Assembly (NCBI GenBank): GCA_039028615.1
Contig: JBCCHT010000001.1
Coordinates: 512,001-576,000 of the forward strand
DNA from: Myxococcota bacterium
Lineage (GTDB): Bacteria > Myxococcota_A > Polyangia > Nannocystales > Nannocystaceae
Direction: 5' to 3'
Length of the DNA: 64,000 bases
Shown here: in pieces, positions 25,105-39,342 of the stretch
How the letters are laid out: each line of letters begins with the position of its first letter
Numbering within the stretch: the stretch's first letter is position 1
Translations under genes and position numbers: made by a program
Notes under the pieces: model-generated
The model's database searches: none
The model's input: the letters and a program-made list of their open reading frames with translations, nothing else
Told to the model about the DNA's origin: nothing

Positions 25105-26295
25105 GTGACTCGTCGAACGCTCCTCGTCGCATCCATGCTCGCGGCCCTGCCGATGACGGGTTGCCCCGCGAACGACCCCGCGCCGAGCCCCGCCGCCGAC
25201 ACCGGCTCGACCGACACGGGCACCACGCCCACGCCCGATCCGGTTCCCAGCGACGCGGCCGACTCCACCGGCCCCGTCGCCACGGACAGCAGCGAGAGCG
25301 GTGAGCCGCCGCCGGGGCTCGAGCCAGGCCCCGACGTCGTCATCCATGCCTTCGAGCAGGCTCACGTGTACTTCTCGGGCTGGGACGAAGGCCAGAACTT
25401 CCGCAGCATCGACACCGAGGTCGAGTTTCCCTCCGCCGACCTCGGCTACGAGAACATCGGCCTGTACATCACGCTGCGCTGCCCCGAGGGCGGCTGCGAC
25501 TTCTGGGACCGCTTCGCGACGCTCGGCGTGGTCGAGAATGCGGGCACCGACGACGAGCGTGTCATCGAGGTCAGCCGCTTCATCACCCCCTATCGCGTGG
25601 AGGGCAGCTGGGGCATCGACGTCTCGCGTTTGCGGCCGCTGCTCACGGGAACCCAGACGCTGCGCGTGCACATCGACACCTGGGTCGGCCCGGGGCACGC
25701 CCAAGGAGCGGGCTGGCTGGTGGACGCGCGCTTCGAGTTGTTCGGGGGCGTGCCCTCCCCGCGACCGGTCGAGGTCATCCCGGTCTGGAACCGCCGCGAC
25801 TTCGAGATCGGCTGCCCCTCCTGCGACGTGGCCGAGGCCCTGCCTCCCCAGACGATCGAGATCCGCGAGGATGCGGCCCGCGTCGACCTCGTCTCCGTCA
25901 TCACCGGTCACGGCCAGGGCAACCTCGACAACTGCGCCGAGTTCTGCTCGCTCGAGCACACGCTGAACGCGGGCGCCTCGACGCTCGCCCGCACCATCTG
26001 GCGCGATGACTGCGACCAGAACCCCATCAGCGGGCAGCAGGGCACCTGGACCTTGTCGCGCGCGGGATGGTGCCCCGGCGACGACGTGGACCCGTGGGTC
26101 GAGGACATCACCCCGGCCAAGGGCACCACCAGCATCGACGTCTCGTACGCCCTCGACGGCTACAGCAACACCTGCCACCCCGAGTCCCCCGTCTGCGAAG
26201 GCTGTGCCCTCGGCACGGGCTGCGATTTCGACGGCGGCAACCACACCGCGCCGCAGATCAAGATGTCGAGCCTCGCCGTGGTCTACATCGACTGA
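25105..26295 (+). CDS. Peptide-N-glycosidase F-like lipoprotein
   Basis: Lipobox MTGC; CDFWDR, RFITPY, ITGHG, CAEFC and RAGWCPG motifs of the PNGase F N/C domains. Confidence 0.8.
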   Translation: MTRRTLLVASMLAALPMTGCPANDPAPSPAADTGSTDTGTTPTPDPVPSDAADSTGPVATDSSESGEPPPGLEPGPDVVIHAFEQAHVYFSGWDEGQNFRSIDTEVEFPSADLGYENIGLYITLRCPEGGCDFWDRFATLGVVENAGTDDERVIEVSRFITPYRVEGSWGIDVSRLRPLLTGTQTLRVHIDTWVGPGHAQGAGWLVDARFELFGGVPSPRPVEVIPVWNRRDFEIGCPSCDVAEALPPQTIEIREDAARVDLVSVITGHGQGNLDNCAEFCSLEHTLNAGASTLARTIWRDDCDQNPISGQQGTWTLSRAGWCPGDDVDPWVEDITPAKGTTSIDVSYALDGYSNTCHPESPVCEGCALGTGCDFDGGNHTAPQIKMSSLAVVYID

Positions 26296-26418
26296 TCCGG
26301 ATCAGCGGGTGTCATCTCGGTCGGCTCGACTACGCCGGTCACGAACACCACCACAATCTTCGCTCCAATCGCCTCACGTCGTGATCGATTGCACGTCGGT
26401 CGTGACTGAGGCCTTCGG

Positions 26419-29013
26419 ATGCATGCACAACCGAGTCTCCTCCTCGCGCTCGCGGCCCTGGGGGTCACGAGCGCGGTGCCGCCAGGTTGCACCACCGAAC
26501 CGGTCTGTCCCGGGCGTGGCTGCGGCTTTCCCTATCAACCCGAGAGCCTGCCTCCGGTTCATCGGGAGTCGAGCTACGACACGCCGACCTCGCTGTACGC
26601 GACGCGTAGCCACGCTACGCCGCCCACCGCGATGACGGAGGCGGGCGGGTTCTTCATCGCCGATGGGCGCCTGTACGACGCCGACGGCGGGGAGTTCGTC
26701 ATTCGCGGGATCAACAACCCCCACGCCTGGTTCGACGACTACGACCGGGACTGGGCCTACGACGCCCTGGAGTCGATCGCGGGCTACGGCTTCAACACGG
26801 TGCGGATCGTCTGGGAGACCGACGAGAGCACCACGCAGCTGCAGCGGATCATCGAGCGCACCGTCGAGCTGCGCATGATCCCGATGATCGAGCTGCACGA
26901 CGTCACGGGGGACGAAAGCGGCACCCGGCTACGCGAGACCGCGTCATACTTCCTGCGCGACGGCGTGCTCGAGCTGCTTCAGGAGCACCGCCGCCACCTG
27001 CTGCTCAACGTCGCCAACGAGTGGAGCGGTGACGACTGGTACGACGAGTACGCGCAGACGGTGGACATGCTGCGCGACGGTGGCCTGGACCACACGCTGG
27101 TCATCGATGCGAACGGCTGGGGGCAGAACGCACAGGTCATCCTCGACGATGGCCAGGCGCTGCTCGACCACGACCCGGAGCACAACCTGCTGTTTTCCGT
27201 GCACATGTACGAGTCCTACGACGACGTCGAGACGATCACCGAGACGCTCGAGGCGGCCGTCGATGCCCAGCTACCGCTCATCGTGGGCGAGTTCGGCTGG
27301 CAGCACGGCCACCCGGTGGAGACCATCGATTTTCGTCGGATCATGGCCGACTGCGAGCGCCTCGGCCTGGGCTATGTGCCGTGGTCGTGGAAGGGCAACA
27401 ACGAGGTCGTCGAGTACCTCGACATGAGCCACGACTGGGGCGGCAACGACCTCACCGAGTGGGGCCGCGCCGTGATCTACGAGGCCAACGGGATCAACGC
27501 GACCTCGCACCTCGCCAGCGTGTTCGCCCCCGAGGGCGGGGAGGTGCCCGAGCCCGTCGAGCCCGTGTGCCCCAGCTTCTCCGAGGGGGTGGAGACCGGG
27601 GCACTGCAGACCGGTTCGGTCGTGGAGGCCTCGGGCCTGGCGGCGAGTCGCCAGAGTCCCGGCGTCCTGTGGACCCACAACGACTCCGGGGACGGCGCTC
27701 GGATCTTCGCCGTCGACACCGACGGTCGAAAGCCGGGCACCTTCGGCTTGGCGGGCGCGGACGCGATCGACTACGAGGACATTGCGATCGCGGGCACCGA
27801 CCTGTTCGTGGGAGACATCGGTGACAATGCCGAGTGGCGCGACGAGATTGCCGTGTATCGCGTCGCCGAGCCGTGGGTCGATCCCGCGGGCGAGGCGGTC
27901 AGCCTCGAGCTCGCCACCACCCGCCTGCGCCTGCGATATCCCGACCGGGCTCACAACGCGGAGACGCTGCTCGCCGACCCGGAGAGCGGGGACCTGTTCA
28001 TCGTGACGAAGGAAGGCTCGGGCAACTCGCGAGTCTTCCGGGCCCCTGCGCCCCACGACCCCGCCGAGGTCATCACCCTCGATCACGTCGCGACTCTGCC
28101 CTTCGCCAGCGCGATGCTCCCGGGGAACCGCTACGCTACGGGCGGCGACGTCTCCCCGAATGGCGACGGCGTGCTGCTGACCTCCTACGACCGCGCCTTC
28201 TATTGGCCACGGCCGCTGGGCGAGCCCCTGTGGCGGGCCTTCGACGTCGACCCCTGCCCCGTGCCGCGCCGCTACGAGCCCCAGGGCGAGGCCATCGCGT
28301 TCACGTCGGGCGGAGACGGCTACTACACGGTGAGCGAGGGTCAGTATGCCCCGCTGTACCTCCAGGGCGAGGACGGAGGCATCGCGCCTCCCGTCGATCC
28401 CGGGGCGGAGCCCGAGCCCGATCCGGGGGCCGAGCCCGATCCTCCTGCCGAGTGCGTCCCGCAGTGCGGAGCCCAGCAGTGTGGCGCCGATCCAGTCTGC
28501 GGACAAAGCTGCGGCGCCTGCAACGGAGAAGACCTCTGCGATGGCGTCGGCGCCTGCATCGGAGCCATCGACGGCGCCTTCATCCTCCGCAACGACTACC
28601 AGGACGACGAAATCGGCTCCTACGTACAGAGCGAGGCTGATGCCCTGCGTGTGCACCATCGGCAGTGGGGTCGCCAGTGGATGTGGGTCATCAACACGTC
28701 CACGCCCATCTCGGTGGTCGCGGGCGACCGCTACCGCGTGCGCTTCGAGTTCGCCGACGCGCCCGACCACCCGGTGCAGGGGCTGTCGGTCGGGCTCACC
28801 CGGGGCTGGACCAGCCACCACCCGCAGCTGCTCGACGACCCGGTCTGGGTGCCGTCTCCCGGCCTGGGCGGTGAGTTCGGCGCGCTCGAAGCCACGATCA
28901 CCGCATCGGAGAGCGGGCCAGTGAACCTCGCCATCGAACTGTACTGGGGCGAGAAACCGCCCTTCGAGATCGATGCTTGGCTCCGCGACATTCGTGTCAG
29001 CGCGGCGCCCTGA
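26419..29013 (+). CDS. Multidomain secreted GH5 glycoside hydrolase (mannanase-like) with beta-propeller, Cys-rich linker and putative CBM-like domain
   Basis: RGIN.PHAW, ELHD.TG, NVANEW (acid/base), SVHMY, IVGEFG (nucleophile) and WSW; then EASGLAAS...WTHNDSG propeller and a CVPQCG..CG..CG.C repeat. Confidence 0.85.
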   Translation: MHAQPSLLLALAALGVTSAVPPGCTTEPVCPGRGCGFPYQPESLPPVHRESSYDTPTSLYATRSHATPPTAMTEAGGFFIADGRLYDADGGEFVIRGINNPHAWFDDYDRDWAYDALESIAGYGFNTVRIVWETDESTTQLQRIIERTVELRMIPMIELHDVTGDESGTRLRETASYFLRDGVLELLQEHRRHLLLNVANEWSGDDWYDEYAQTVDMLRDGGLDHTLVIDANGWGQNAQVILDDGQALLDHDPEHNLLFSVHMYESYDDVETITETLEAAVDAQLPLIVGEFGWQHGHPVETIDFRRIMADCERLGLGYVPWSWKGNNEVVEYLDMSHDWGGNDLTEWGRAVIYEANGINATSHLASVFAPEGGEVPEPVEPVCPSFSEGVETGALQTGSVVEASGLAASRQSPGVLWTHNDSGDGARIFAVDTDGRKPGTFGLAGADAIDYEDIAIAGTDLFVGDIGDNAEWRDEIAVYRVAEPWVDPAGEAVSLELATTRLRLRYPDRAHNAETLLADPESGDLFIVTKEGSGNSRVFRAPAPHDPAEVITLDHVATLPFASAMLPGNRYATGGDVSPNGDGVLLTSYDRAFYWPRPLGEPLWRAFDVDPCPVPRRYEPQGEAIAFTSGGDGYYTVSEGQYAPLYLQGEDGGIAPPVDPGAEPEPDPGAEPDPPAECVPQCGAQQCGADPVCGQSCGACNGEDLCDGVGACIGAIDGAFILRNDYQDDEIGSYVQSEADALRVHHRQWGRQWMWVINTSTPISVVAGDRYRVRFEFADAPDHPVQGLSVGLTRGWTSHHPQLLDDPVWVPSPGLGGEFGALEATITASESGPVNLAIELYWGEKPPFEIDAWLRDIRVSAAP

Positions 29014-33067: not shown

Positions 33068-33096
33068 TTGACAAGGATCGCCGCTCCGCCGACGCT
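33068..33096 (+). promoter_or_regulatory. Putative sigma70-type promoter of the TOMM operon (possibly leaderless)
   Basis: Perfect TTGACA at 33068-33073, a 17-nt spacer, weak -10 GACGCT at 33091-33096, and GTG 6 nt further on. Confidence 0.4.
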
Positions 33097-33102
33097 TGGA
33101 AC

Positions 33103-33585
33103 GTGCCGTGGTCCTTCGAGCGTCATCGCCCCGAACGAGGTGCTCGCGGTGTCGTCGTCGGTAGCGTCTGTTGTAGCTCGTGCTGTTGCTGCTGCTGCTG
33201 CGTGCACACGGTGGCCGGCATCGTCGGGAGCGTGCAGGGCTCGGTCAAAGCGATCAAATCCCAGAGCGACCCCGAGGCGATCGCAGGCGCCGAACGACTG
33301 GTCACCACCTACTGGGTCATCGCCGGCGCGATCGCGTGGCTGGTCGTCATCCTGGGCATGCTGACCGGGCAGCTCATCGCGGGCTTGATCGCGGTCGCCT
33401 TCGTCGGCCCGCTGCTCCAGCTGCTCGTGTCTCTGCTCTGCTTGCCCATGGCGCAGAGTCAACCGCTCGCTCGCCGGGCCGGAGCCATGGCCGCGCTCAA
33501 GCGAATGACCCTGGGTGGCTTGCTCGGGCTCGCGATCGGCATTGCCTTCGGTGGCTTCACCATCGTCGTGTTCATGGGCCTTTAG
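33103..33585 (+). CDS. Putative membrane-embedded TOMM precursor/substrate with poly-Cys motif
   Basis: 160 aa: MPWSFERHRPERGARGVVVGSV-CCSSCCCCCCC-VHT..., then about 3-4 hydrophobic helices. First gene of the YcaO operon. Start inferred. Confidence 0.65.
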   Translation: MPWSFERHRPERGARGVVVGSVCCSSCCCCCCCVHTVAGIVGSVQGSVKAIKSQSDPEAIAGAERLVTTYWVIAGAIAWLVVILGMLTGQLIAGLIAVAFVGPLLQLLVSLLCLPMAQSQPLARRAGAMAALKRMTLGGLLGLAIGIAFGGFTIVVFMGL

Positions 33586-33588
33586 CTG

Positions 33589-34209
33589 ATGGGCAAGTCA
33601 CCGCTTCGCCGTCGCCTCGCCGTAGGCTCCGCCCTGCTCTTCGCCGGCCTGTGCGTCTACGCCTGGTACCGGGGCACGGTCCCCGACGACACCTGGCGCG
33701 AGCCCTCCTCCGCCGACGAGCGCGTCCGCTGCCAGCTCGTCGAGTCCCCGGTCGGCACTCCCGTGCGCTGCGTGGCCTTCGTCGACCTGCCCTCCGCCGC
33801 GCTCATCGAGGCGGTCCGCGACTACGAGTCCTTCCCCGAGATCTTCGATGGTCCCTGGGGCTCCGTGGTGCTGACCAGCATCCAGTCCAAGCCCCCCGAT
33901 CGTGTACACCTCGACGGTCGCGTCGAGGTCCTGGGCGCGCACTGGCCCATCGACATGCACATCGACCACGAGACCACCGACGAAGGATTCGTGGCCGGCT
34001 GGGATGCCCATGACGACGAGGGTCGGGTCAATCGCGGGCGCTGGGTGGTCACCGCCAAGGGAGACGCGACCGCCATCGTCGCCTACGAGCTCGAAGTGCA
34101 AGCGCCGTGGAGTCCCACCTTCTTGGTCAACGACGTGCTGCTGACGCGCATGAAAGACCCGCTGCGGCGGATCATCGAGCACGCGCACGCCGAGCACGAC
34201 GGCGCATGA
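33589..34209 (+). CDS. Membrane-anchored SRPBCC/polyketide cyclase-like (START-fold) protein
   Basis: N-terminal TM, 'VRDYESFPEIF', 'NRGRWVV' and 'VAYELEVQ..W.P.FLVN'. Starts 3 nt after the precursor stop. Confidence 0.7.
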   Translation: MGKSPLRRRLAVGSALLFAGLCVYAWYRGTVPDDTWREPSSADERVRCQLVESPVGTPVRCVAFVDLPSAALIEAVRDYESFPEIFDGPWGSVVLTSIQSKPPDRVHLDGRVEVLGAHWPIDMHIDHETTDEGFVAGWDAHDDEGRVNRGRWVVTAKGDATAIVAYELEVQAPWSPTFLVNDVLLTRMKDPLRRIIEHAHAEHDGA

Positions 34210-35015
34210 GCGAGACCACCCTCGTCCCCGTCGCACCGCTCACCGTGGTGCCACAGCCGGGCTGCGTGCGCGTCTTGGCCGGCGAGGACCTGCGCTTCAC
34301 GGTGCGCGGCGAAGGACTCGAGACTTGGTTGCCCGCAGTCTTGGCCGCCCTCGGGCCAGGGGTGTCGGGCACCGAAGCCTCCGCGCATGCTCCCCTCGCT
34401 CAGCGCAACGATGCGCTCGAGATCCTCGCCCGCCTCACCACCGAGCGACTGCTCGTCGAGCAAGCGAGCTCGAAGCCGACCGCCGCCCTCACCGTCGAGG
34501 TCGTCGGTGAGGGGCCCTTGGCGTCGCGCCTGCGCGATCAGCTGCCCGCTCCCGATACGGGCGCTTCGGGTGCCCCCCGGCTGTCCCTCATCGTTCAGAG
34601 CACGCTCGACTACCGCTGGGCCCGCGAGGCTGATCTGCGGGCCGCCTCCGAGGGTCACTGGCGGCTGTGGGTCAGCGATGGCGCGGCGGCCCGCGGCTGG
34701 GTGGGGCCGGTGATGCGCCCCGAAGGCGGCCCCTGCCTCGACTGTCTGCTCACCGCGTTCGAGCGCCTCTCCCCCGAGCCCGAGCTGTGGCGAGCGCTGC
34801 TGGAACACCCGGGCCCCTTCGCCACCTCCACCGTGCCCGAGGCCGCGCGCGACATCCTGTGCCGCATCACCGCCTGGAAGCTCTCGGGGGCGACCGAGTC
34901 CGACGTTCCGGCCGCGGTCCATCGCCTGCACGTGCTCGAGCTGGCGACCTTCGAGGTGAACAGTCACGTCGTGCCGGTCGATCCCGATTGCCCCCGGGAG
35001 CACGCCGCCACATGA
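34206..35015 (+). CDS. TOMM cyclodehydratase scaffold (RRE plus E1/ThiF-like C protein)
   Basis: ATGA overlap. N-terminal RRE-like region ending LARLTTERLL, V.VVGEG, WVGP...PEGGPCLDC and C-terminal PVDPDCP. Confidence 0.8.
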   Translation: MSETTLVPVAPLTVVPQPGCVRVLAGEDLRFTVRGEGLETWLPAVLAALGPGVSGTEASAHAPLAQRNDALEILARLTTERLLVEQASSKPTAALTVEVVGEGPLASRLRDQLPAPDTGASGAPRLSLIVQSTLDYRWAREADLRAASEGHWRLWVSDGAAARGWVGPVMRPEGGPCLDCLLTAFERLSPEPELWRALLEHPGPFATSTVPEAARDILCRITAWKLSGATESDVPAAVHRLHVLELATFEVNSHVVPVDPDCPREHAAT

Positions 35016-36232
35016 GCCGAGCGCTCGAGGCATGGCTGTGCAACCCCTTCACCGGGGCGCTGGTGGCCGAGGGCGAGGTCCCGCGACGCCCCCACGATCC
35101 CGACGTGTTCGTGCATGCGGCCACCGTCGCCCCGCGCGGGCCCCAGCGGCAGGCGCTGGTCGTCGGTGGGGCCGGCTTCACCCCCGAAGCGGCTCGGGGC
35201 GCCGCCCTCGGCGAGGCGATCGAGCGCTTCGAGAGCTGGCCACGACCGAGCGACGGAGCCCTAGCCCGACCGCCCCAAGGCGAGCCCGCCTGGGGCCCCG
35301 ACGATTTCGTGCTGTTTTCGGCGCAGCAGTACGCGGCCGATGGTTTTCCTTTTGCGCCGCCCGACGAAGCCTCGCTGTCGCCCTACGTGTGCGCGCGAAG
35401 GATCGACGACGGCCACCCCGTGTGGATCCCTCAGGCCTTCGTCTACCTCGATGCCCCCGGCGGACACCACGTCGCGCCGATGAGTTCGACCGGCCTTTCC
35501 GCGGGGCCACCGGGACACCCCACCGTGTTGCGCGGCCTCCAAGAAGTCATCGAACGGGACGCGCTGGTGCGGGCGTGGTGGGGCGAGTACGGCATCGAGC
35601 GCTGGGATCCCGAGCTCGTATGGGAGCAGCTCGGTCCCGAGCTCGCTGCCATCGCCCGGCGTCCGAACCTGCGCTACGCCTTCCACCGCATTCGCACGCC
35701 CTACTGCGCGCACGCCTGCGTGGTCACGCTGGTCGGCGAAACGCTCGAGGGCGACTGCCTCAGCGTGGGCTCGGCGTGTCGCGCGACCCGTCGGGAGAGC
35801 CTGACCAAGGCGTTGCTCGAGGCCATCCAGGGGCGGCACTACGTGCGCTATCGAATCTCGCAGGACGACCCCTGGTCGGAGGTCCCCGTGAGCTTCGAAG
35901 AGCACGCGTGCTGGTACAGCCGCTGGCCGGAGCGTTGGGCCGACACCGCGTTCGCGCGTGCCGATGCCGCCTGCGATCCCGACGCGGCCCAGCGCACCGA
36001 TGACCTCGCCGCGCTGCTGGGCGCCCTCGGGCCCGACCACCCCGCCGTCGTGCGCATCGTGACCCCGCCCATCGTGGCCCGCCTCGCCCCGGGGTGGCGC
36101 GTGCTCAAGGTCGTCGTGTCCGGCCTGGTGCCGCTGCACGGCGATCACCGCATGGCCCACCTGGGTGCCGCTCGGTGGCGCAACCGGCCCTTCGAACAAT
36201 GGTTGGCGTATCCACCCCACCCCTTTGCATGA
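35012..36232 (+). CDS. YcaO-family azoline-forming cyclodehydratase (D protein)
   Basis: ATGA overlap. GGAG...ALGEAIER, SSTGLSAG, GLQEVIERDA, KALLEA and Pro-rich C-terminus YPPHPFA. Confidence 0.92.
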   Translation: MSRALEAWLCNPFTGALVAEGEVPRRPHDPDVFVHAATVAPRGPQRQALVVGGAGFTPEAARGAALGEAIERFESWPRPSDGALARPPQGEPAWGPDDFVLFSAQQYAADGFPFAPPDEASLSPYVCARRIDDGHPVWIPQAFVYLDAPGGHHVAPMSSTGLSAGPPGHPTVLRGLQEVIERDALVRAWWGEYGIERWDPELVWEQLGPELAAIARRPNLRYAFHRIRTPYCAHACVVTLVGETLEGDCLSVGSACRATRRESLTKALLEAIQGRHYVRYRISQDDPWSEVPVSFEEHACWYSRWPERWADTAFARADAACDPDAAQRTDDLAALLGALGPDHPAVVRIVTPPIVARLAPGWRVLKVVVSGLVPLHGDHRMAHLGAARWRNRPFEQWLAYPPHPFA

Positions 36233-36245
36233 GCGATGATATGGC

Positions 36246-36977
36246 ATGAGCGTGAAGCGTCCGCGACTTCGCCCGCTGCTGCCCGAGCTCGACCCCACGA
36301 GCTTCCCCGCGTTTCGCGATCGCATCCTCGAAGCCGAAGCCGACGCTCCGAGCCACGCGGTGCGTCGCTATCCCGGCTTCCCGCGCGTCGAGCTGCCGCG
36401 CCCCCGGCATCGCCGGTTGCCTCGCTTCGACGACGTCGTCACCCGACGGCGGACCTGCCGAGCCTTCGAGCCCCGGCTTCCCGACGCGAAAGCCCTTTCG
36501 GCATGGCTGGAGCTCGGCCATGGCGTCACGGGTCCCGATGGTCGGGGACCCACGCCATCGGCCGGCAACCTCCAGGCGGTTCAGCTCGTGCTCGTGCCGC
36601 TGTGTTCCGGTTGGCTCGGCGCCGGGGCCTACCACTACGACCGGGGGCAACACGGGCTCGCACGGATCGGTGACGGAGCCCCCGACTGGAACGAAGTGGT
36701 GCCGTCGCTGAGCCAAGCTCCGGGCGCGCCGTTGCTGGTCGTCATCGCCGGAGAAGAGACCGCGGTCGCGCACAAGTACGGTGAACGCGGGCTGCGGTTC
36801 TTGTTGCTGGAAGCGGGCCAGGTCCTGCAGTCGCTGGGGATGGCCGCGGCTGCTGGAGGCCTCGCCGTGACTCCGATGGGCGGGTTCTTCGAAGGCCAGG
36901 TGCACGCACATACCGGACTGGGCGCGGACGACCTCGTGCTGGCGACCGCCGTGGCGGGGATCCCCGCTCGGCCGTGA
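36246..36977 (+). CDS. SagB/McbC-type FMN-dependent azoline dehydrogenase
   Basis: RRRTCRAF, PSAGNL, GAYHYD, KYGERGLRFLLLEAG (Lys-Tyr catalytic motif) and GGFFE. Confidence 0.9.
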   Translation: MSVKRPRLRPLLPELDPTSFPAFRDRILEAEADAPSHAVRRYPGFPRVELPRPRHRRLPRFDDVVTRRRTCRAFEPRLPDAKALSAWLELGHGVTGPDGRGPTPSAGNLQAVQLVLVPLCSGWLGAGAYHYDRGQHGLARIGDGAPDWNEVVPSLSQAPGAPLLVVIAGEETAVAHKYGERGLRFLLLEAGQVLQSLGMAAAAGGLAVTPMGGFFEGQVHAHTGLGADDLVLATAVAGIPARP

Positions 36978-37061: not shown

Positions 37062-38075
37062 ATGCCCGCCTGGGTGCCAGCGCTCTCGCTCGCGTTGCTC
37101 AGTGCACCGTCTGTGGATGAGGCTCGGCTTCGGGTCACCATCGAAGGCGAGCCCGGCTGCATCGACTCCGAGCGGGTGGTCGAGGCTGCGATCGAGCGCT
37201 TCGACGACCAGCGTTGGCAGCCGGTGCAAATGCAGGTCTGGCTCGACGAGGCGCCCAACGGAGGTCACGCCGCGCGCTATCGGCTCGAGTCGGCGGCGGC
37301 GGTAGGGCGCGGGCAGGTCGTCACCACCGATTGCGCCACGCTCACGGCCGTATTGGCCATCAAGCTGGGTCTGGCCGCCGTGCCGGGTCGAGCCCTCGAT
37401 CTTCGTCCGGGGCCCCATCCGCTGGAGGGCACCTGGGAACCCGCGGCGACCGAGAGTGCAGTCGCGGCCTCGGACACCGAGCGACCGCTCGACGCCCCAC
37501 CCACGGAAGCACCGACCTCGATGGCCAGGCCCCGCCTCCCCCAAATTCGGCTGGGGTCCGGCGCGGGCGTCATGCTCGGTGGCCTCGGCCCAGCCAGCGG
37601 TCGTTTCGAGCTCGGGGCCGCCCTCGCCGAGCAGCCCTGGGTCGTGGAGCTGTACGGCACGATGGCCGTGGCCCCGACGACCCGACTCGATGACGCGATC
37701 ACCCGGCGTCTCCGCTCGTACGGTGCCGGCCTTCGAGGTTGTGCTGCCGCTCGCTGGCGCCGCCTCGAAATTCCCGCGTGCCTCGGGATGGAGGCCGCCA
37801 CTGTCCGCATCGACGTCGCCGGTCTCCCGCAGGGCGGCGTGGGGCACGAGCCGTGGGTCGTCGCGGCGGCGCACGTCCGCCCGCAGGTCGCCATCACGCG
37901 GCGCGTCGGACTGTGGCTCGCGACCATGGCCGGCGTCTCACTGCGGCGCCCCGCCTTTTCCGTGACCGGACTCGGCACCGTCTTCCGCAGTGATTCCATA
38001 CTGTTGACGGCCACGGCGGGAATTTCGATCGCAATCGCCGGGCCCACGACGGATCCACGGGGTTCCGTACAGTAG
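37062..38075 (+). CDS. Secreted/outer-membrane hypothetical protein co-operonic with ECF sigma
   Basis: Signal peptide, a Cys pair and a C-terminal amphipathic beta-strand region. TAGAGT box upstream; stop overlaps the sigma start. Confidence 0.6.
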   Translation: MPAWVPALSLALLSAPSVDEARLRVTIEGEPGCIDSERVVEAAIERFDDQRWQPVQMQVWLDEAPNGGHAARYRLESAAAVGRGQVVTTDCATLTAVLAIKLGLAAVPGRALDLRPGPHPLEGTWEPAATESAVAASDTERPLDAPPTEAPTSMARPRLPQIRLGSGAGVMLGGLGPASGRFELGAALAEQPWVVELYGTMAVAPTTRLDDAITRRLRSYGAGLRGCAAARWRRLEIPACLGMEAATVRIDVAGLPQGGVGHEPWVVAAAHVRPQVAITRRVGLWLATMAGVSLRRPAFSVTGLGTVFRSDSILLTATAGISIAIAGPTTDPRGSVQ

Positions 38076-38602
38076 TGAAGCTGGTGGCCCAGGCTGCACC
38101 CAGTGAGCGCTTCGATGCGCTGTTCCGTGAACACCGTGGCTTCGTGTTTCGCTCCCTGCGGCACCTGGGGAGCCCGCCCGAGGCCACCGAAGACCTGACC
38201 CAGGAGGTCTTCATCACCCTGTATCGGCGCTCGTCGGACTTCGACGCGTCTCGTTCTGCTCGCGCGTGGCTGTTCACCACCGCTCGCAACGTGCTGGCCA
38301 ACTACCGTCGGGTGAGCGCCCGGGCCCAGCGCAAGCTGAAGGCGCTCGCCGATGCTCCGAACGAGCCCACGCGGACCTTCGATCCCCAGCGGCTCGAGAC
38401 GGCGCGGACGGTGGAGCAGCTGCTCCTGCAAATGGACGAGCCCAAGCGACTGGTCCTGCTGCTGGCCGACGCCGAAGGCCTCACCGGGCCCGAGCTCGCC
38501 GCCGCCCTCGACATCCCCCTCAACACTGCCTACTCGCGCCTGCGCTCCGCTCGGTCGGAGTTCGAGCGCCTCGTAGCCCCCCTGGATGGGTCGACGCCAT
38601 GA
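38075..38602 (+). CDS. ECF RNA polymerase sigma factor
   Basis: EDLTQEVF, RAWLFTTARN and ELAAALDIPLNTAYSRL (regions 2 and 4). Confidence 0.93.
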   Translation: MKLVAQAAPSERFDALFREHRGFVFRSLRHLGSPPEATEDLTQEVFITLYRRSSDFDASRSARAWLFTTARNVLANYRRVSARAQRKLKALADAPNEPTRTFDPQRLETARTVEQLLLQMDEPKRLVLLLADAEGLTGPELAAALDIPLNTAYSRLRSARSEFERLVAPLDGSTP

Positions 38603-39342
38603 CCACGCCACCTCCGCTCAGCGAACACGCGCGGGATCGACTCGCCTCCGTCCGGGAGCTCCGCGAGCCGATCGTCGACATCGAGCAGAGCCTCGCCGCG
38701 GTCCACGAGCGCATCGGCACCCAGACCCCGCCTCCCGGAGGCACCGCGGGCTCGGGTGGTGCGCTGAAGCTGGCGGGAGGATTGGCCGCATCGGTGGTGG
38801 TCGGCGCGGCCACGTGGATGTTGCTGTCGAGCGCACAACCTCAGACGCAGCCGCCCGCGGATCCGGTCGCCGTCACGCAGCCCCCGGAGAGCGTCGAGCC
38901 CGAGCCTCCCCATGCCCTCGCCGCGGCCCCTACCCCCGCCCCCGCTGCGGCCAAAGAGCCATCGACCACCACCACCGTCATCGAAGCCTCTGCTCCACCG
39001 AGCACTTCCGAGACGAAACCTGCTGCCCCTCGACGCACCGCCCGGCGTCGTCGGGTTCAGGCCCCGTCCGGCGAAGATGCCCTGACGGCGGAGCTCCGCC
39101 TCATCGATCGCGCCCGCGGCCAGCTCCGTGCCCGTCGCTTCGATGCGGCCATCCGCAGCCTCGAGCGCCACGCACGGACCTTCCCGTACGGACAGCTCGT
39201 CGACGAACGCAACGTCATGCTCGTCGAGGCCCTGTGTGGAGACGGCCAAACCGAGCGCGCCCGCAGCAAGGCTCAGGCCTTCCTCGCCGCTGCCCCGGGC
39301 TCTCCCTTCGCGCCGCGGCTTCGAGACTCCTGCGCACACTAG
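38599..39342 (+). CDS. Putative anti-sigma factor (TM, Pro-rich linker, TPR-like C-terminus)
   Basis: ATGA overlap with the sigma gene; L.AEL.LI..AR...H...FP.GQL..ER...ALC motif. Confidence 0.75.
   Translation: MTTPPPLSEHARDRLASVRELREPIVDIEQSLAAVHERIGTQTPPPGGTAGSGGALKLAGGLAASVVVGAATWMLLSSAQPQTQPPADPVAVTQPPESVEPEPPHALAAAPTPAPAAAKEPSTTTTVIEASAPPSTSETKPAAPRRTARRRRVQAPSGEDALTAELRLIDRARGQLRARRFDAAIRSLERHARTFPYGQLVDERNVMLVEALCGDGQTERARSKAQAFLAAAPGSPFAPRLRDSCAH

Follow-up and report, generated by a model that had tools for sequence, protein, structure and literature searches.

The locus described here raises the question of what a nearly uninterrupted run of cysteines is doing at the beginning of a gene that is followed directly by genes for azole-forming enzymes. 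The preliminary description of the window (the 64,000-nucleotide stretch of DNA analysed in this study) had proposed that this run is the core of a streptolysin S-like peptide behind a leader of 22 residues, and the core of SagA begins with a Cys run. Both tract and leader were read correctly: the codons TGT TGT AGC TCG TGC TGT TGC TGC TGC TGC TGC at 33169-33201 on the forward strand (residues 23-33) encode CCSSCCCCCCC, i.e. 9 Cys and 2 Ser, and 22 codons lie between the GTG start at 33103 and the tract. In a six-frame scan of the host genome (12.27 Mb on 94 contigs, 68% GC) this was the single stretch with 9 Cys in 11 residues; 11-residue stretches containing 7 or more Cys numbered 13 genome-wide. 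The mixed use of TGT and TGC had been taken as evidence for selection at the protein level, an argument that is too weak alone (TGT accounts for 3 of the 9 tract Cys codons and for 14 of the 99 Cys codons in 15 long genes of the window, and five TGC codons close the tract). Selection itself is supported by conservation: the tract is kept, with differing codons (mostly TGT in locus L002), in genomes of 34-74% GC, which argues for selection on the protein and rules out a microsatellite artefact.

A word search with the precursor retrieved 11 proteins, and a profile of 10 of these sequences matched 473 clusters (50% identity) at E values up to 0.001, 265 of them at up to 1e-10. For the analysis of conservation the window protein was aligned with 138 of 159 others, the excluded 21 being truncated, fused, extended or interrupted by long inserts. 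Among these 139 rows the tract contains 6 to 11 Cys per member, with 0 to 2 Ser/Thr in 133 rows; Cys32 and Cys33 are invariant, and His35 is conserved in 99%. The tract was present in 146 of the 150 listed profile matches, a count that is partly circular because the profile was built on tract-bearing sequences, and in 143 of those 146 an ER motif lies at most 20 residues away. The four tract-less matches among the 150 begin within or after the first hydrophobic helix, one of them being the short call of the window gene itself. The tract, on whose conservation the streptolysin proposal had been made to depend, is thus conserved among homologues. In some members (P0115, P0125, P0133, P0150, P0154, P0159) helix 1 and TM2 are separated by long Pro-rich inserts, that of P0115 with two CxxC pairs resembling a zinc ribbon. 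In P0012, on one contig, leader and Cys tract are joined to an OmpA-like domain via a shared Gly/Ala-rich stretch, either by chimeric assembly or as a real fusion.

Automatic gene calls place the start at GTG 33211, which leaves out the tract (P0003, 124 amino acids; the Atlas record begins at residue 37). A start at this position is ruled out by a motif which homologues conserve upstream of the tract and which places the start no further downstream than 33103; the shortest leaders among homologues are similar in length to that of the window protein. By column conservation across the 139 rows, this motif (33109-33138, + strand; residues 3-12) reads hydrophobic-x-hydrophobic-x-x-H-x-P-E-R and is a candidate RRE-binding strand. 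From the RH.PER element predicted earlier, Glu11 (100%), Arg12 (99%) and His8 (79%) were recovered; the Phe in front of it was not, being found in 21% of the rows at a position that is merely hydrophobic. Columns 3 and 5 are hydrophobic and Pro10 is present in 80%. In the family the motif takes the form hydrophobic-x-hydrophobic-x-x-H-P-P-E-R, always with the membrane domain behind it, and the leader Glu is spaced 20-27 residues from the last Cys in the aligned rows. The alignment of homologue N-termini that had been suggested as a check therefore yielded an HxPER-type motif together with the Cys tract. Prediction of a complex between the C protein of the operon and residues 1-36 gave a score of 0.60, rated weak by the tool, versus 0.00 for the best of three controls; of 157 solved pairs 116 reached the score mark, as did 2 of 215 mismatched ones, and passes at or below 0.60 comprise only 18 solved pairs but both mismatches. 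Contact agreement between runs was at least 97%, with a partner pLDDT of about 52, and the pass may reflect resemblance to solved RRE-leader complexes. In McbBCD the leader joins the RRE sheet as an additional strand (PMC6395948); the alternating hydrophobic pattern ahead of HxPER would fit such a strand addition. A tentative promoter was recognized by eye at 33068-33096 on the same strand (TTGACA, 17 nt, and a weak second hexamer whose end lies 6 nt upstream of the GTG), with a similar arrangement, also by eye, upstream of L013; a consensus scan found 0 sites. Both hexamers would fit a leaderless-type start.

What the preliminary description had omitted are 127 further residues behind the tract, which form a membrane domain. 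According to the open reading frame, the homologues and a structural model, the precursor gene (33103-33585, + strand) encodes a membrane protein of 160 amino acids, consisting of the leader, the Cys tract, a hydrophobic helix 1 and three TM helices. Helix 1 (33190-33258, + strand; residues 30-52) begins within the tract and continues directly after it without a linker; it is Gly-rich and contains His35 and a GxxxG-like motif. In the AlphaFold2 model (139 rows; mean pLDDT 89.5) helices span residues 30-52, 57-87, 91-118 and 122-159, and helix 1 (pLDDT 88-98 over residues 31-50) lies packed against the TM bundle; mean hydropathy in the family is 1.57 for residues 27-47. Residues 1-29 are modelled without secondary structure, resembling a leader plus core. 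The TM helices (33304-33573, + strand; residues about 68-87, 94-119 and 135-157) include the conserved Tyr70-Trp71, Pro103 and Gln106, and the membrane domain is itself conserved, with Trp71 in 99% and Gln106 in 97% of the 139 rows and Pro103 invariant. No Pfam or NCBIfam family was consistent across the 139 members, cluster look-up of 10 homologues returned a single name, 'hypothetical protein', and ESM Atlas matches to the precursor, all below 0.9, pointed to no family. Fold searches with the precursor model retrieved generic helical bundles at most (best Z 7.2), and Foldseek found no match at E 0.001, a lack of matches that does not show a new fold. No description of the precursor family was found in the searched literature, which leaves out most subscription papers; the consulted text of PMC4603692 contains neither 'membrane' nor 'transmembrane', three family motifs are absent from two of its supplements, and a term search of the accessible part of PMC7470986 gave no relevant matches. 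The precursor apparently represents an undescribed family of multi-pass membrane proteins beside thiazole-forming enzymes, which bacteria may decorate with a row of thiazoles.

Our best reading of the locus, which we hold to be moderately probable, is a TOMM-type azole system acting on an integral membrane protein, which probably retains its thiazole tract. The precursor gene is followed on the same strand by genes for a membrane-anchored START protein, an RRE/E1-like C protein, a YcaO protein and a SagB dehydrogenase; a gap of 3 nt and two overlaps of the ATGA type lie between these genes. The START/SRPBCC-fold protein (33589-34209; PF10604 in homologues; model pLDDT 90; best Foldseek START match at E 1.4e-6) has an N-terminal membrane anchor (helix 5-30) preceded by basic residues, so that its START domain should lie outside. 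Its Cys61 is invariant, and a second Cys is found just before Gln49 in 9 of 12 aligned rows, possibly forming a disulfide. The discrete C protein (34206-35015) combines an RRE with an E1-like domain; it scores 49.8 bits with TIGR03882 (cut-off 36.9), and its profile matches TruD (E 6e-5), LynD (E 2.3e-4) and, weakly, PbtF (E 0.35). The YcaO cyclodehydratase, or D protein (35012-36232), scores 128.6 bits with PF02624 (cut-off 25.7) and below the cut-off with TIGR03604. Its ATP-site motifs ExxER and S-x-G-L-x-AG were found in 4 of 4 loci checked, as was its Pro-rich C-terminus ending in PHPFA, which also occurs in L041 and L042. McbD has Pro394 and Pro396 at its C-terminus (PMC6395948, consulted in part), and the terminal Ala instead of Pro in the window YcaO protein counts against our best reading. 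The SagB-type FMN dehydrogenase (36246-36977; PF00881, with CyaGox and SagB-type matches) scores 58.6 bits with TIGR03605, below the cut-off of 78.4, and carries a Lys-Tyr pair, found as KYG in 4 of 4 loci checked; the same source describes a role for Lys201-Tyr202 in the dehydrogenase. Since both D and B score below NCBIfam cut-offs, the enzymes belong to a divergent clade. No MNIO gene is present among the operon genes; these five genes and the scanned flanking genes also revealed neither an ABC exporter nor a CaaX protease, other flanks being inspected by eye.

Several observations concern the surroundings of the operon. Directly behind it (37062-39342) lie an ECF sigma factor gene (38075-38602), a probable anti-sigma gene and, upstream of these, an unknown gene, which were not seen beside the other loci; a Peptide-N-glycosidase F-like protein and a GH5 glycosidase with extra domains are encoded at 25105-29013 of the window. 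The host genome has four more YcaO genes in frames of 621-777 amino acids (C50:27023-28027, two at C17:16438-19248, and C63:10501-11430), probably encoding fused C-D enzymes of other RiPP clusters.

Azole genes adjoin the precursor gene in all 8 loci read (one, at a contig end, by eye only), a genomic context that covers 8 loci of a 473-cluster family and includes the close kin L002 and L041. The order precursor-START-C-D-B is found in 6 loci: the window, L001 (a Sandaracinaceae record), L002, L013, L041 and L042. In G877 precursor, START and D lie at a contig end and C and B at the start of another contig; in this genome only, a gene with weak matches to an M12 metallopeptidase and tectonin (L026:2030-3961) is located divergently from the operon. 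In L004 two tandem precursor copies precede what, by eye, is the beginning of a C-like gene, and the lack of a START gene between precursor and C counts against our best reading. Across 301 sampled genomes the profile of the precursor gave 3 strong (E below 1e-31) and 4 marginal matches, and the C profile matched the same 3 genomes strongly (E below 1e-53) and 5 others weakly (frames of 765-893 amino acids). Precursor and enzymes are thus coupled, the catalytic motifs are intact, and the precursor has the layout of a leader and a core. The tract, being conserved and situated within a C/D/B operon, is a candidate heterocyclisation site, as had been proposed from the outset.

The co-occurrence of precursor and C protein in both directions argues against an alternative in which the cysteines stay unmodified, binding metal or being acylated as in the CYSTM modules of eukaryotes, while the enzymes act elsewhere. 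With Cys32, Cys33 and His35 (99-100%) and Met150 (70% of the 139 aligned rows) the family would possess a soft-metal ligand set, and 2 of the 139 members, the window protein not among them, match CYSTM (PF12734) weakly (best E 0.0023). A metal-related role would also fit the genes for a TonB-dependent receptor, a PKHD hydroxylase and a PepSY protein located directly upstream on the same strand in L002 (3403-7751) and L041 (10063-14398). However, the conserved motif at a fixed distance upstream of the tract speaks against this alternative, Ser/Thr substitutions inside the tract fit azole better than thiol chemistry, and no alternative precursor candidate is conserved across the loci (according to ORF lists, in which short ORFs were not systematically covered). 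An unmodified thiol cluster is therefore quite improbable. The L002 record is labelled Clostridia, yet its TonB/PKHD/PepSY and Skp-like genes suggest a diderm host.

Alternatively, the tract might be heterocyclised and then excised by host proteases as a poly-azole small molecule, with the membrane domain serving as a disposable carrier or export scaffold and the START protein ferrying or sequestering the hydrophobic product. The leader-core layout and the two precursor copies in L004 would be consistent with this, START folds bind hydrophobic ligands, and removal of the McbA leader is carried out by host TldD/E, with no protease encoded in the cluster (PMC6395948). The patchy distribution of the family, as known for specialised metabolites, also fits: no match was found in 72 other genomes of the host's order, there was 1 strong precursor match among 400 others of a phylum sample, and of the other genomes around G436 none matched in a set of 400 and 2 in a set of 250. 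The plasmids and viral contigs searched gave no match. Distant members may be missed, because the searches of large samples scored just 8-14 candidates per genome. Weak genome matches, with E values around 1e-4 to 1e-3, were disregarded (4 in the 400-genome phylum sample, 4 among the 301 genomes, and 1 in 400 plus 1 in 250 around G436); the sole one of these that was read, in G324, is a poly-Gln stretch on the opposite strand. Against a released product, the operon encodes neither an exporter nor a protease, the tract passes without a linker into a conserved helix, the invariant polar residues of the membrane domain suggest a folded, working domain, and the core hardly diversifies, with its 0-2 Ser/Thr in 133 of 139 rows. 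Release of a small molecule is thus unlikely.

The assignment to the streptolysin S family did not hold, as the precursor is a polytopic membrane protein without a match to TIGR03602 and neither operon nor scanned flanks contain an ABC exporter or CaaX protease. According to the consulted text of PMC4603692, both ABC transporters and a CaaX protease are required by the definition of the cytolysins, and their core is recognized by a Gly followed by at least 10 heterocyclisable residues. The window tract has 11 contiguous heterocyclisable residues, preceded by Gly-Ser-Val and not by Gly directly, and only 40 of 146 family tracts contain at least 10 contiguous ones. The family shares with streptolysin S and listeriolysin S the discrete C and D proteins, the SagB dehydrogenase and a contiguous Cys/Ser/Thr run after a short leader; it differs in its precursor, a polytopic membrane protein of 150-200 amino acids, in the added membrane-anchored START protein, in the HxPER leader motif and in the ABC exporter and CaaX protease, neither of which was found in the operon or the scanned flanks. 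A membrane-tethered toxin acting by contact could be envisaged nonetheless, as the tract resembles those of cytolysins (PMC4603692), listeriolysin S remains associated with the membrane and acts by contact-dependent killing (PMC8501752), and 17 of the 139 members match TIGR03602, the streptolysin S model, weakly (best E 8.9e-5). These matches do not include the window protein and are explained by Cys composition, no recognisable immunity gene was seen with the operon, and the hosts appear to be diderms in which a protein of the inner membrane could not reach its target. We consider such a toxin very improbable.

In the retained-tract system that we favour, the C protein would bind the HxPER leader through its RRE, YcaO would cyclodehydrate at least part, perhaps most, of the contiguous Cys/Ser run, and oxidation by the SagB enzyme, judging from its homologues, would turn these residues into a row of thiazoles and oxazoles. 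The product would most likely remain on the membrane domain, which would replace an exporter. Where the tract would come to lie can be considered from charges and covariation. Mean K+R counts are 3.2 for the loop between helix 1 and TM2, 0.4 for TM2-3 and 3.7 for TM3-4, a bias that places the first and last of these loops inside and TM2-3 outside. Two covarying pairs (38-142 and 45-138), the signal among many artefacts since most top pairs reflect invariant columns, suggest that helix 1 runs antiparallel to TM4, so that its Cys end would point outward. Helix 1 might thus dock into the TM bundle, bringing the modified tract close to the outer leaflet; there the anchored START domain could perhaps bind or shield it. 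The N-terminus is basic (mean K+R 4.6), which opposes an N-out helix 1; the model also makes Cys30-33 part of helix 1, so that the enzymes may have no access to them or they may have another role. Both points count against our best reading. Given the basic leader, the lack of an encoded protease and the helical Cys30-33, helix 1 may be re-entrant, with only the first cysteines modified. The most likely use would be an envelope metal-binding or sensing site formed by azoles, His35 and the last cysteines, a guess based on His35, the terminal Cys, Met150 and iron-uptake neighbours; the latter occur in one lineage only (L002, L041), which counts against a metal function.

Among known systems, McbBCD (the microcin B17 synthetase) and TruD/LynD have in common with the window enzymes an RRE plus E1-like scaffold, a Pro-rich YcaO C-terminus and a Lys-Tyr dehydrogenase, whereas their substrate is a soluble peptide that is released and exported (PMC6395948), and the window D and B proteins fall into their own divergent clade. 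The nearest concept is that of the TIGR04222 proteins, proposed MNIO substrates which, in the part of PMC12452194 consulted, are found beside MNIO, bufferins and oxazolins and are likewise Cys-rich integral membrane proteins suggested as substrates of RiPP enzymes; modified-Cys products of relatives chelate copper. They differ from the window family in relying on MNIO instead of YcaO/SagB and in their dispersed, C-terminal Cys, and their modification is itself only proposed; 0 of the 139 members match TIGR04222 at E 0.01. McrA and uL16 are precedents for a YcaO enzyme modifying a protein that keeps its own role (PMC13063428, consulted in part). There, a single thioamide is formed on a soluble protein, while the RRE, leader and dehydrogenase of the window operon point to multiple azoles on a membrane protein.

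The observation itself is real and fits a variant form of a known kind of system, with a fair chance that azole chemistry is here put to a new use, on membrane proteins. It is quite possible, if short of probable, that polytopic membrane proteins, widespread and unannotated, carry a contiguous poly-thiazole tract that is never released, with the leader being read in the cytoplasm, the modified helix docking into its own bundle and the anchored START domain receiving it at the outer face. The known azole-forming YcaO systems act on short peptides, which undergo cleavage and export, and the whole-protein YcaO substrates in the literature examined are thioamidated soluble proteins. Precursors of the kind described here, if real, would be missed by the published rule of fewer than 150 residues with a Cys/Ser/Thr-rich C-terminal half (PMC4603692, in the text consulted) and by gene callers that clip the tract. 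With its five genes the operon is compact enough for direct tests in E. coli. If an integral membrane protein does carry an RRE-guided poly-azole, this would broaden the purpose of azole chemistry, the azole being a membrane-protein modification or built-in cofactor and not a route to a secreted peptide.
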